Virus record (IMG/VR): IMGVR_UViG_3300031998_000039 | Location: 34,756 to 98,755 of that record | Source: a virus | Lineage: Duplodnaviria; Caudoviricetes | Length of the DNA: 64,000 bases | Direction: 5' to 3' (one strand) | Part shown: positions 14,114 to 43,865 of the stretch, piece by piece | Position numbering within the stretch: position 1 is the first letter of the stretch | Layout of the letters: every line of letters begins with the position of its first letter | Notes under the pieces: model-generated | The model's input: the letters and a program-made list of their open reading frames with translations, nothing else | Database searches by the model: none | Told to the model about the DNA's origin: nothing | Translations under genes and position numbers: made by a program

Positions 14114-15037
14114 TTATTCTCCTAATACAATTTTCTTTGCCCAGTTCATTGCTTGTGAACTTACTGCCTTGCCAAAGTACTGACTACTAATTACATCTGC
14201 TATCAGTTCGGGTTCTTCTTTGATAACATCATCGTAGATGCGTTTCGGAAGGTTACGGGCTACAACAGCCATATCCTTGGGAGTTATCTGCTCTGGTAAT
14301 AAACCTTCATCTATTTGCTTATTTATATCCTTACGAACTCTTGCTTCGGTGACAACTTCTGCAGCTACCTCTTCAGCATGTGCTTTTTCGAGCAGATGTT
14401 CAGGATCAAGCACTTTCTTCTCATGGTTATGTTGCTTTGTTTCCGAAAAACTATCGTTGATAACTTTAAGATAAAAAGGATTTCTGCAATCAGGATCATT
14501 AAGTTTTGTCATGTTCTTACAAACACAACCTTCGATAGCATTACCATACATAGGCTGATTAAAGAATGACTTAACATGCTCCCATGATACAAATGGGCCG
14601 TCATAATAGGTATGTACATAAATCAGTCCATGTGATTCCGCATACGCTTTAACTTCATCTTGAGGTAGCCACTGTTCTGTATCTTTATCAAATATGTCAT
14701 ATACATACCACTTGTTATATGCATCTTTGTCATATTTAACCGTATGCGGTACTAACCACTCGCCATATAAACAACGATTGCCTAAATCACGGAACTTTTC
14801 TTTATCAAGCGTCTGTACGAAATTCCAAAAACCACGCAAATTGTTAGTCATATTGAGTTCATTCTTACGGCTAAAAGCTTTAAGTTCACCGTCTTCCCAA
14901 GCAATCTGGGCATTACAACCGTCCACTTTTGTCTGGATAACGACTCTATCTCCCACCTCAAACGCTCCAGTATTAGCTGCAACCATTCCGTCTTCACTGT
15001 TCTCTTTAACTCTGACTATATCCATAAAGTGCTTCAT
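14114..15037 (-). CDS. ATP-dependent RNA ligase (Rnl2-like)
   Basis: Motif I KVDGCN, SRK, YGEW, VYDI, EGCVCK, LKVI. Confidence 0.85.
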   Translation of the reverse strand: MKHFMDIVRVKENSEDGMVAANTGAFEVGDRVVIQTKVDGCNAQIAWEDGELKAFSRKNELNMTNNLRGFWNFVQTLDKEKFRDLGNRCLYGEWLVPHTVKYDKDAYNKWYVYDIFDKDTEQWLPQDEVKAYAESHGLIYVHTYYDGPFVSWEHVKSFFNQPMYGNAIEGCVCKNMTKLNDPDCRNPFYLKVINDSFSETKQHNHEKKVLDPEHLLEKAHAEEVAAEVVTEARVRKDINKQIDEGLLPEQITPKDMAVVARNLPKRIYDDVIKEEPELIADVISSQYFGKAVSSQAMNWAKKIVLGE

Positions 15038-16729: not shown

Positions 16730-16846
16730 TCATTCGGGTAAGGATTTGCACCTTACATAAAACAAAGACTTCACTCCTCACGGCTTGTACCAACCGTTCT
16801 TCTCATGTTGTACACCATTAGCGTCTACCTATTCCGCCACCGAATG
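16730..16846 (-). ncRNA. tRNA-Leu-like RNA #1 without a canonical anticodon arm
   Basis: Acceptor CATTCGG/CCGAATG+A; D arm GCG-GAATAGGTAGA-CGC; T arm GTAAGG-TGCAAAT-CCTTAC; about 60-nt central hairpin region. Confidence 0.8.
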
Positions 16847-16990
16847 AAATTTTGGTTTTATTGGGTTACTTTATGTTTTTCCTAAAGTCATCTTTCATAT
16901 CAACATACAACCAACTAAAAGCACTAATTACTGTAATCAACGTTAATACTTTTAAAAAAATCATCTTTCCTCCTAAAATTATCACATAAA

Positions 16991-17229: not shown

Positions 17230-17384
17230 TCATTCGGGTTAGGATTTGCACCTAACATGATATATATACAGGAATATATATCCAGCGATGGAGCTACCAA
17301 TCTTACCTGCGTCTACTATTACTCGTGGACTAAAAGTCTTTTTGCCGAGTTTTACCATAGCCATGTCTATTCCGCCACCGAATG
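17230..17384 (-). ncRNA. tRNA-Leu-like RNA #2 with about 50-nt hairpin insert in the D loop
   Basis: Same acceptor CATTCGG/CCGAATG; T arm GTTAGG-TGCAAAT-CCTAAC (compensatory change versus #1); variable-arm hairpin GATATATAT/ATATATATC. Confidence 0.8.
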
Positions 17385-17622: not shown

Positions 17623-17973
17623 TTATTTGTCTGTCCATGACTTGAATGCACATATCTTTTCTACTAATCCACTAGTATCTCCATCGAATGTAATGGCTCT
17701 ATCATCAACATAAACAAGGGCAGGTGGTTTTACGTCTGAAATTCTGTCAAATTTAATGTTGTATTTTTCAAGCCATCCTTTCATAGCAATCTTACCCGTA
17801 GGATAGACACTTCTTGTTGATACTATTACAACCTCATAACCTTTTTCACGCAAATTGTCTATAGTTTCTTTAATTCCTTGCACTGGTTCATCAGATATTA
17901 TATCGTGACCTTGCCATCCACTTTTATAACTATGAATCACACCATCAAAATCAAATACGATTGTCTTTTTCAT
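17623..17973 (-). CDS. Cap-less HAD-family phosphatase (PNKP phosphatase/nucleotidase-like)
   Basis: IVFDFDGVI, VSTR, KP, YVDDRA. Confidence 0.8.
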   Translation of the reverse strand: MKKTIVFDFDGVIHSYKSGWQGHDIISDEPVQGIKETIDNLREKGYEVVIVSTRSVYPTGKIAMKGWLEKYNIKFDRISDVKPPALVYVDDRAITFDGDTSGLVEKICAFKSWTDK

Positions 17974-19522: not shown

Positions 19523-19743
19523 CTTTTTCCTCCCATAATTTATATCGTGTTGCTTTAAAAGAAAAGGCTTTGCAAATTCAACCGAATGTATACAAACAGC
19601 ATTTACAAAGCCTTTTTAATTGTGAGTTTTAAATCATCACTGGATTTGCTGTGAGTGTATCTGGGGGAATATTCATTCCCATCCCGAATAAATAATCTAC
19701 TCCCCATCGTCGTGCTGTGCCTGAGCATGATGTTGTAGGATAA

Positions 19744-19815
19744 CAGAGGCTGAAGGTAACGCTCCTTCTTCGTCTGGTTCAAAGCCAGAAATGTCCACTT
19801 GTCCACTAAGCCCCT
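19744..19815 (-). tRNA. tRNA-Gln(TTG) with atypical T loop
   Basis: AGGGGCT/AGCCTCT+G73; anticodon arm TCTGG-CTTTGAA-CCAGA; T arm GAAGG-AGCGTTA-CCTTC. Confidence 0.8.
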
Positions 19816-19925
19816 ATATTTTATGAGTTGCACATCTAAACCTAATGGTTGTTAGCCAATGAGGAACACACTTCGATAGTTTTTTGAGATTAATTTGCTT
19901 TAAGTTTCGGCGCATTAAGCCGAAA

Positions 19926-19993
19926 TGGACGGAAGAGGAGTCGAACCTCTAACTACTTGACACAAGTTGTTCTTCCAATTGAACTATCCGCCC
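19926..19993 (-). ncRNA. tRNA-like RNA with G3.U70/A73 and truncated anticodon arm
   Basis: GGGCGGA/TCCGTCC+A; D arm GTTC/GAAC; ACTTG-TGT-CAAGT; T arm AGAGG-TTCGACT-CCTCT; 68 nt. Confidence 0.8.
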
Positions 19994-20040
19994 TACCAAA
20001 ACATGGCAAGAAAAGTTTTTGCTTTTACATATTTAGGGGA

Positions 20041-20114
20041 CGATCATGACGGGACTTGAACCCGTGACCTCCAACGTGACAGACTGGCGTTCTAACCAAC
20101 TGAACTACATGACC
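20041..20114 (-). tRNA. tRNA-Asp(GTC)
   Basis: Cloverleaf GGTCATG/CATGATC+G, loop CT-GTC-AC. Confidence 0.92.
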
Positions 20115-20117
20115 AAA

Positions 20118-20190
20118 CGGCTCCAGCAGGACTTGAACCTACGACACCCTGATTAACAGTCAGATGCTCTACCAACTGAGCTATGGAGCC
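20118..20190 (-). tRNA. tRNA-Asn(GTT)
   Basis: Cloverleaf GGCTCCA/TGGAGCC+G, loop CT-GTT-AA. Confidence 0.94.
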
Positions 20191-20257
20191 ATATCTGCTT
20201 CTAACCTTTAATAGGATTAAAAGCAGATTTTAAGAAAGCACATGATATGAAAAATAC

Positions 20258-20328
20258 AGCCTTCAGACGGATTCGAACCGCCATAGCTTGATTACAGGTC
20301 AAGAGTACTACCGTTGTACGATGAAGGC
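20258..20328 (-). tRNA. tRNA-Thr(TGT) with C33
   Basis: GCCTTCA/TGAAGGC+T; CTTGA-CCTGTAA-TCAAG; T loop TTCGAAT. Confidence 0.8.
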
Positions 20329-20381
20329 TTGACCATTACTGGTCATATATCAAAAGAGGTTTCAAATGGGGTATCACGTAA

Positions 20382-20453
20382 TTGCAGAAGCGGGATTCGA
20401 ACCCGCGTCTCAGCCTTATGAGGGCTGCGAGGCATCCACTCCTCTATTCTGCG
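20382..20453 (-). tRNA. tRNA-Met(CAT), initiator-like
   Basis: C1xA72 mismatch, A11-U24, loop CT-CAT-AA. Confidence 0.85.
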
Positions 20454-20604
20454 ATAACGCTCGATCTTAACCAGCCTACATCGAGCATAGGTTTTTTGTA
20501 TGTATTATCGGGGAGGATAGTACATACATGGGAGGGCTTGCTATCCAAACAAGCCAAGCAATAGGTGTCCCCCGTGTCATATTAAACACTCCTATTGCTT
20601 AAAA

Positions 20605-21451: not shown

Positions 21452-21480
21452 ATAATACCATATAACTTTTATTTTGTCAA
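21452..21480 (-). promoter_or_regulatory. SigmaA promoter upstream of the tRNA cluster
   Basis: TTGACA-17 nt-TATTAT with extended -10 TG. Confidence 0.75.
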
Positions 21481-43574: not shown

Positions 43575-43865
43575 CTCCTTCTGTAAAGGTTGATAAGCTT
43601 TATGCTGTAAGCCGGCGCTTATCTGACCGTTATGCAGCCTTCGCCAATGTTATTCAGAGGTTTATTTAACGATAGCACTGTTTCTACCCATCAAAACTGT
43701 TTAACTACCGTCCGCAGTGCATAGAGTTAGGCTGTACGCCCTATGATGCCTATTTATGGACAAATATAATCCACATTCTCTGTTAACGTAGCCTTTTAAA
43801 AAGGCTTAGGCTAGTCAATAAAGACTTTTACAAATCTCCGCTTCTATAAGTGGTGGGTTATTGAC
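43575..43865 (-). ncRNA. omegaRNA (HEARO-like) scaffold
   Basis: GTCAATAA/TTATTGAC closing stem, GACTAGCCTAAG, CTACGTT and AACATTGGCGAAG motifs directly upstream of iscB. Confidence 0.85.

Follow-up and report, generated by a model that had tools for sequence, protein, structure and literature searches.

A predicted gene of 68 nt, on the minus strand at positions 19926 to 19993 of the 64,000-nt stretch of viral DNA analysed here (the window), encodes a tRNA-like RNA with the marks of tRNA-Ala and a collapsed anticodon arm. Comparison with its predicted homologs shows that this element is a genuine RNA gene derived from tRNA-Ala, in which the acceptor/T-arm helix and the elbow are conserved and the anticodon arm is free to shrink, grow or vanish. 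Since it has no presentable anticodon, the element is not a decoder. Our preferred reading, which we hold tentatively and to which we give a probability of roughly 45%, is that it may act in trans as a non-decoding and probably alanylated tRNA mimic. The window is part of an IMG/VR virus record of 98.7 kb, with a GC content of 0.34 and a CheckV completeness of 64%, which comes from a bovine gut metagenome and represents a rumen phage.

The element is recognised as a tRNA by its overall shape. The Rfam tRNA family RF00005, with a gathering score of 29, matched it at 51.5 bits (E 4e-9) with all 71 consensus positions aligned, and no Rfam family besides tRNA matched the element. RNAfold gave the same cloverleaf as minimum free energy and centroid structure (-22.6 kcal/mol, z -2.5 versus shuffles). 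On the minus strand, the 5' strand of the acceptor stem, GGGCGGA (19987 to 19993), pairs at all seven positions with UCCGUCC (19927 to 19933), which is followed by the discriminator A73 (19926); the pairs are G1-C72, G2-C71, G3.U70, C4-G69, G5-C68, G6-C67 and A7-U66. Both programs delimited the other three arms on the same strand. The D arm (19969 to 19984) has a 4-bp stem, GUUC/GAAC, and an 8-nt loop containing G18G19, and the T arm (19934 to 19950) consists of AGAGG/CCUCU and the standard loop UUCGACU; U8 and A14 are present as well. The anticodon arm (19955 to 19967) is reduced to 13 nt instead of 17, with a 5-bp stem, ACUUG/CAAGU, and the loop UGU, so that the RF00005 alignment holds 3 nt where 7 are expected. 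The CCA end is not encoded, and the same is true of the four adjacent tRNAs. As read from the sequence, the alanine identity set (G3.U70, A73, G1-C72 and G2-C71) is complete. A first-pass annotation of this DNA had described perfect acceptor, D and T arms, a 13-nt anticodon arm with a 3-nt loop and these same determinants of alanyl-tRNA synthetase (AlaRS), and our analysis agreed with it in every detail.

The 5-bp stem and 7-nt loop of a canonical anticodon arm, with U33, the anticodon at positions 34 to 36 and a purine at 37, are missing from the element, and ARAGORN, which finds the four adjacent tRNAs, did not call it. The 13 nt can nevertheless be drawn, formally, as three base pairs closing the 7-nt loop UGUGUCA, with UGU as anticodon, and one could imagine an unconventional decoder or some other part in translation. 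However, such a loop would have G33 and C37 in place of U33 and a purine, and two extra Watson-Crick pairs would close it. Moreover, a canonical tRNA-Thr(UGU) lies 270 nt upstream, and the arms of the homologs described below have neither a common length nor a common candidate anticodon. We therefore consider a decoding role very improbable. ARAGORN found no transfer-messenger RNA (tmRNA) in the window, and 68 nt leave no room for a message.

As the window comes from a single metagenome-derived record, the short arm could have arisen artificially, by a 4-nt deletion put into a normal tRNA gene during sequencing or assembly, as the first-pass annotation had cautioned. Positions 19705 to 20157 and 19710 to 20154 are covered by Logan contigs of two runs of the source sample, with no difference to the window; as separately assembled contigs of one sample and not raw reads, they are not fully independent, and they exclude an assembler quirk, not every error. 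Non-canonical arms are likewise seen in the homologs that come from other studies and samples. The assembly deletion is thus contradicted at the contig level, and an artefact appears extremely improbable; even together with the odd decoder it carries very little weight. In run X2, a joint in one contig (80% likeness) skips positions 19817 to 20115 and may represent a strain without the element and the tRNA-Asp, an observation too weak to be used.

We then asked how the element fares in related phages. Relatives were found through DnaE homologs with 64-85% identity, which led to 11 syntenic contigs sharing the gene order PD-(D/E)XK nuclease, dnaE, two small open reading frames (ORFs), tRNA cluster and YunG-like gene. 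Four of these (L187, L188, L193 and L195) have a homolog in the same slot downstream of dnaE. The L188 homolog (71 nt; Rfam 51.6 bits, no ARAGORN call) keeps G3.U70 and A73, has A-U instead of G-C at 6:67, and carries a central arm of 16 nt forming at best 4 bp around an 8-nt loop. The 69-nt homolog of L193 has the acceptor of the window element, a T stem GUUGG/CCAAC, an eroded D stem and a 15-nt central arm of 5 bp with a 5-nt loop. In L195 the homolog (79 nt) again has the window's acceptor, together with a D stem GCUU/AAGC and 25 unstructured central nucleotides, and ARAGORN miscalls it as Leu. The L187 homolog, only 58 nt long, lacks the central arm altogether and has A3-U70 and C8. The 58-nt form is present in two samples, as the arrangement in run X3 from another study equals that of L187: X3 agrees with the window over a segment that begins at the last base of the mini-hairpin and includes the downstream hairpin, shares the two changes of L187 in that hairpin, and then has 184 unread letters before tRNA-Met, a length that matches the L187 arrangement (183 nt).

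No canonical tRNA-Ala, and no arm of 5 bp with a 7-nt loop, was found in this slot among the syntenic relatives. Normal loops in close relatives, which the first-pass annotation had named as the sign of a recent deletion or error, were therefore not encountered, and the anticodon-defective state is old rather than the product of a recent deletion. The same annotation had looked to homologs with the same short arm; the central arms of the four syntenic homologs are indeed non-canonical, but their lengths (16, 15, 25 and 0 nt) differ from the 13 nt of the window. Further afield, no such element was present near dnaE in L001 to L004 (IMG/VR, DnaE 45-60% identity), exact-pattern scans of IMG/VR, which may not have covered records close to the window, gave no match to the whole element or to its 3' 29 nt, and megablast of 20 kb of the window against GenBank phages gave none either.

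The five lineage members, including the window, were compared pair by pair. The counts were taken from arm-parsed sequences; a MAFFT alignment of the five misplaced the T stem. In total, 78 of the 80 stem cells are paired, the only two exceptions being in the D stem of L193, and none is found in the acceptor or T stems. Six of the 16 pairs have changed on both sides (acceptor 6:67, D 11:24 and 13:22, and T 49:65, 50:64 and 51:63), through A-U at 6:67 in L188, the D stem GCUU/AAGC in L195, and the T stem GUUGG/CCAAC in L193 and L195. The window and L188 share 85% identity in the element, compared with 54-59% in the 80-nt flanks, which are essentially unalignable. The element thus does not evolve like a spacer and its stems are not randomly disrupted, with local erosion in the L193/L195 pair and in the L187 form. 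As the stems covary, the upper body of the molecule is maintained. G3.U70 and A73 are kept in four of the five members. Altogether, the predicted tRNA fold is clearly kept in this lineage, and the putative alanine mark mostly, not always.

Outside this lineage, a BLAST search of GenBank phages with a 79-nt stretch as the query gave full-length matches only in the Microbacterium phages Neferthena, Clock, Alakazam and Nebulous, at 73.5% identity and with an E value of 0.2, which is not significant alone; homology, as opposed to convergence, with these genes is not established. The Microbacterium phage gene consists of 67 nt plus an encoded CCA, with G3.U70 and A73, and has the D-arm motif and the 4-nt variable region AGUU in common with the window element. 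Its anticodon arm, 12 nt long, forms at best 2 bp around a 7-nt loop still holding UGC. At least 11 GenBank phages have it at one fixed location, with a helicase-side gene on one side and DNA polymerase I on the other, and it stands alone between protein genes, not behind other tRNAs. Its T stem covaries (CCAGG, GUAGG and CUAGG with matching partners) and the gene is 92.5% conserved, compared with 75-78% for the flanks. Depending on the submitter, it is annotated as 'tRNA-Ala', as 'tRNA-OTHER Undet(nnn)' or not at all (Neferthena gene 39, Clock gene 38, Fulton gene 38). It differs from the window element in its encoded CCA, its solitary position and its high-GC hosts, and the phages that carry it are unrelated to the window phage, with a GC content of 0.64 versus 0.34 and no common neighbour proteins.

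Pattern scans of IMG/VR, JGI metagenomes and GTDB genomes, which required the D-arm motif and a distance between D and T arms too small to accommodate a normal anticodon arm, revealed further short-armed loci. Two are of the Ala type: L042 has a 4-bp stem with a tetraloop, and L043 has 5 bp with a tetraloop, the T stem of the window element and a mini-stem that differs from the window's by two compensatory pairs. A non-Ala locus, L040, on a 310-kb phage contig, has 5 bp and a 3-nt loop. An acceptor-specific scan added L179 to L186, and the carrier loci L042, L043 and L179 to L186 span GC contents from 0.36 to 0.68. Since tblastn with the neighbour proteins of the window gave no match in the other carrier loci, these carrier phages are unrelated to the window phage. 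Pfam searches of the neighbour proteins in L050, L058 and L040 were uninformative except for a helicase adjoining the L058 element. With the same D arm, the Ala type accounts for 3 of 9 well-formed short-armed families, a count that leaves the window out and that rests on subjective grouping and small numbers, versus 3 of 119 sampled normal-length tRNAs (Fisher p 0.004), which is suggestive of an alanine enrichment among short-armed tRNA-like elements. A generic D-arm pattern with fixed spacing found 31 short-armed loci, none of the Ala type. Across lineages, 97.9% of the stem cells are paired, with a covariation score of 0.60 versus 0.19 in shuffles; this mostly reflects tRNA ancestry, and the evidence from within a lineage is what counts.

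Other unusual RNAs came to light in these scans. An 83-nt RNA candidate, abundant and nearly invariant, was found in L199:4887-5625, a human-gut phage contig, and in about 90 further IMG/VR loci (L198 to L277 and more). It has the acceptor GGGCGGA/UCCGUCC, A73 and the T loop of the window element, and an interior that is not tRNA-like. In L199 it forms an array with three tRNA-like elements, each with an abnormal anticodon arm: one has a 4-nt loop, one a 4-bp stem and a 4-nt loop, and one a 39-nt insert. No canonical tRNA is nearby. Three recurrent short-armed tRNA-like families without alanine marks also occur in gut-type viral contigs, each conserved over several of them. The first (L009, L011, L013, L015 to L017, L019, L021, L007 and L012) has the acceptor UGGAAAG and a 4-bp stem with a tetraloop; the others comprise L025, L027, L030 and L035, and L018, L029 and L031.

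What could such an RNA do? It is the acceptor/T-arm half of tRNA that matters for recognition by RNase P, the 3' processing enzymes, the CCA-adding enzyme, T-loop modifiers, AlaRS and EF-Tu. This is the half that is conserved in the element, and the window form should therefore be processed, CCA-extended and alanylated. We propose that the element would be transcribed with the upstream tRNAs, excised by the host RNase P and 3' processing enzymes, and extended by the host CCA-adding enzyme. AlaRS would then very probably load it with alanine, because this enzyme needs only the acceptor helix: its identity rests on G3.U70, and changes of the 3:70 pair to A-U or G-C were reported to abolish alanylation (PMC9976931). 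The charged RNA might finally occupy or divert, in trans, a factor that recognises the acceptor/T-arm half of tRNA, such as SmpB and the trans-translation machinery, EF-Tu or a tRNA-directed host toxin. The more specific roles put forward in the first-pass annotation, as a decoy, a ligand of SmpB or RqcH, or an alanine donor, are guesses.

The closest published analogue appears to be the 'TLD only' tmRNA gene (TLD, tRNA-like domain) of mycobacteriophage DS6A (Hudson, Lau & Williams 2014, PMC4131195). For a similar molecule, strong inhibition of tmRNA was reported, which may come about through titration of SmpB (PMC4131195); such a titration, proposed for the DS6A RNA as a way to inhibit trans-translation, would be one candidate mechanism for the window element. 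In L290, we located the DS6A RNA directly upstream of gp34, the DNA polymerase III gene. Like the window element, it is a small phage-encoded RNA beside replication genes, with an alanine acceptor (G3.U70, A73) and a T arm, and without anticodon or message. However, the window element folds as a true cloverleaf: it has G18G19 and a D stem of 4 bp, and a closed mini-hairpin occupies the place of SmpB. The TLD of tmRNA has no D stem, and an open junction or helix 2, at which SmpB sits, takes the place of the anticodon arm, so that the element falls outside the structural definition of a TLD. The 58-nt form of L187, without central arm, comes closer to it. The two RNAs have no common sequence beyond generic tRNA features, and CCA is not encoded in the window element. 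Canonical tRNA-Ala resembles the element in its acceptor identity set, D and T arms, length class and place in a phage tRNA cluster, and differs from it by a loop of 7 nt instead of 3, an anticodon and detection by ARAGORN; a normal tRNA-Ala(UGC), in L272, has an acceptor stem identical to that of the L188 homolog. Alanine minihelices and microhelices, in which an acceptor/T-arm helix with G3.U70 suffices for AlaRS (PMC9976931), are laboratory constructs. Among natural non-decoding RNAs that are tRNA-shaped and handled by tRNA processing enzymes, mascRNA and YrlA are cellular and belong to other contexts, and the tRNA-like structures of plant viruses sit at the 3' ends of RNA genomes.

Several observations weigh against the proposed role in trans. 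L187, whose downstream flank is the most similar to that of the window, has lost the whole central hairpin and U8, and its A3-U70 pair should abolish alanylation (PMC9976931) while the fold is kept. Similarly, phage YuuY has A3-U70 and a long stem at the syntenic place in the Microbacterium-phage group, and the metagenome locus L055 has G3-C70. The flanks of L193 and L195 are 96-100% identical, whereas the element is only 76% identical, differing in the D stem and the whole central arm, and two of the four D-stem pairs are broken in L193; this pattern suggests that the constraint was relaxed or the element replaced. A breakpoint of homology between the window and L187 falls within the element (50% identity upstream, 96% downstream), so that the locus is a recombination mosaic, which speaks against strong constraint. 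Seven of the 11 syntenic relatives lack the element (L189, L191, L192, L194, L196, L197 and the P0008 contig, for which absence is only deduced from a gap of about 630 nt), and with a patchy presence in 5 of 12 syntenic genomes, window included, it is evidently dispensable among these phages. The 4-bp D stem and closed mini-hairpin, unlike the tmRNA TLD, make SmpB binding doubtful. Among public sequencing runs, no RNA run was listed as containing the stretch. Finally, the scans select by design for intact arms and a short middle, and recurrence alone is no proof of function.

The patchiness and the mosaic breakpoint would also suit a decaying pseudogene, that is, an ancestral phage tRNA-Ala that lost its anticodon loop and whose remnant is eroding differently in each lineage, the apparent covariation being a product of recombination with intact tRNA genes. 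Removal of 4 nt from a 7-nt loop would leave exactly 5 bp and a 3-nt loop, the damage seems to advance stepwise (in the L187/X3 form the arm is missing, and A and C replace G3 and U8; in L193 the D stem is broken), and the adjacent Gln-like gene described below also looks degenerate. Yet a decaying remnant is hard to reconcile with 85% conservation between essentially unalignable flanks in the comparison of the window with L188, with the six compensatory pairs and the absence of acceptor or T-stem disruptions in five homologs, and with an intact upper body next to an abnormal anticodon arm across relatives whose DnaE proteins are only 73-85% identical. The clearly conserved parallel case in Microbacterium phages also argues against it. 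Overall, we regard the pseudogene explanation as unlikely, although it keeps a real share of the probability.

The position of the element suggests another explanation. On the minus strand the cluster reads Met-Thr-Asn-Asp-element, the four canonical tRNAs Met(CAT), Thr(TGT), Asn(GTT) and Asp(GTC) occupying 20038 to 20454 (ARAGORN; Rfam 59-71 bits) and the element being the last gene. Directly after A73 (19905 to 19925, minus strand), we read a hairpin with a 7-bp stem, UUUCGGC/GCCGAAA, and a 7-nt loop, with which the transcript likely ends. Lacking a T tract, it does not qualify as a canonical terminator; no canonical intrinsic terminator was found near the tRNA cluster. The hairpin is kept in L187, with one change and one inserted base, and in L188 with a different inner stem. 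The element could therefore be a cis-acting module for processing or transcript ending, a dummy tRNA body between the last real tRNA and the end-of-operon hairpin, at which RNase P and the 3' enzymes cut and free the upstream tRNAs from the hairpin. Only the fold would then be selected, the alanine marks would be baggage from the tRNA-Ala ancestor, and the excised RNA would have no job.

This scenario accounts well for an element that is always last in its sub-cluster with the hairpin directly after it, for a fold conserved although G3.U70 became A-U (L187/X3 arrangement) or G-C (L055) without loss of the element, and for a central arm that is free to vary. Relatives without the element keep the hairpin directly after the last tRNA, and other tRNA-shaped elements stand at gene junctions in the same window. 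On the other hand, G3.U70 and A73 are kept in four of five members and in several unrelated lineages, although a Watson-Crick pair suits the fold at least as well. In addition, the Microbacterium phage element is solitary between protein genes, and relatives manage without the element, so the processing benefit must be small. We judge this cis-acting role improbable, if far from negligible, and retain the trans-acting mimic as our working proposal.

The surroundings of the element hold further features. A sigma-70-like promoter candidate, TTGACA-17 nt-TATTAT with a TG, lies on the minus strand at 21452 to 21480, just after dnaE and ahead of the two small ORFs and the tRNA cluster; it is a consensus match only (11 of 12 positions). 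The genes nearby encode DnaE, a PD-(D/E)XK nuclease, an RNA ligase (PF09414) and a small HAD/PNKP-phosphatase-like protein. Genes of the RNA-repair type are thus close to the tRNA cluster (window 14114-15037 and 17623-17973; L188:14294-15091), the ligase being present in all relatives examined, the HAD/PNKP-phosphatase-like ORF in the window and a Thg1-like gene in L188. Pfam searches of the 98.7-kb record, itself about 64% complete, did not find genes for SmpB, a CCA-adding enzyme or Thg1.

On the other side of the hairpin lies a weak tRNA-Gln(UUG)-like element (19744 to 19815, minus strand; Rfam 37.8 bits, no ARAGORN call), with an abnormal T loop and an intact anticodon arm. It overlaps a 76-codon ORF (19603-19833), and in the relatives this slot is occupied by a canonical tRNA-Gln. 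The spacer of about 70-90 nt that separates the hairpin from tRNA-Gln is conserved in most relatives, with or without the Ala-like element (window 19816-19904; L187:10437-10523; L189:10356-10423; L191:8893-8962; L192:7444-7513), and may be a promoter or another RNA element. Upstream, the motif CAUGU, 1-3 nt, AAUA sits 12-25 nt before the element in L187 (10320-10345), L188 (10510-10530), L193 and L195, and a degraded copy is present in the window (19994-20015). In L188 it resembles an extended -10 box, and the element may once have had its own, putative promoter. The tRNA clusters of the relatives also contain a tRNA with an 8-nt anticodon loop, to which ARAGORN gives the four-base anticodon 'cgta' (L193:8945-9017 and L195:7675-7747), and, after tRNA-Gln, a tRNA-like element with a 5-nt loop (L189:10535-10604 and L195:8085-8154).

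Two tRNA-Leu-like elements lie at gene junctions on the minus strand of the window (16730-16847 and 17232-17384). They have a class II Leu D arm, a common acceptor CAUUCGG/CCGAAUG, A73, the T loop UGCAAAU and long inserts in place of the anticodon and variable arms, and they fit the picture of a phage rich in non-decoding tRNA shapes. Elsewhere in the window, a HEARO (IscB omega) RNA (43629-43865, minus strand, 122 bits) points to an IscB element inside the phage genome. Among dnaE genes, that of L003 is invaded by a group I intron (L003:11802-11995; Rfam 36 bits, below the gathering score), and several homologs carry inteins with a LAGLIDADG domain (P0011, P0014, P0019, P0023 and others).

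Codon supply and the replacement of host tRNAs cut by defence nucleases are the usual explanations for tRNA genes in phages. A conserved non-decoding tRNA body fits neither explanation. The element keeps the one identity set that works without an anticodon, which points to the use of the tRNA shape, and possibly of alanyl-tRNA chemistry, outside decoding. It is the most tRNA-like member of a class that, in the literature searched, is apparently undescribed beyond the 'TLD only' RNA of DS6A and general remarks on non-canonical phage tRNA-like RNAs. One can go further and speculate that alanine-chargeable, anticodon-less mimics form a class in many unrelated phage lineages (rumen and gut phages, actinophages and jumbo phages), whose targets in trans would be the quality control of host translation or the immunity directed at tRNAs, for instance through titration of SmpB or EF-Tu or the capture of toxins that attack the acceptor end; the hypervariable central arm would be irrelevant or a specificity module, and the window element the minimal cloverleaf member. 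We consider this broader proposal doubtful on balance. Such genes are now missed by ARAGORN or annotated inconsistently, as 'tRNA-Ala', as 'tRNA-OTHER' or as nothing, and the culturable Microbacterium phages offer a direct experimental handle on them. Should these RNAs prove to be charged and to affect SmpB, EF-Tu or tRNA-targeting toxins, they would represent a new form of RNA-based host manipulation or counter-defence.

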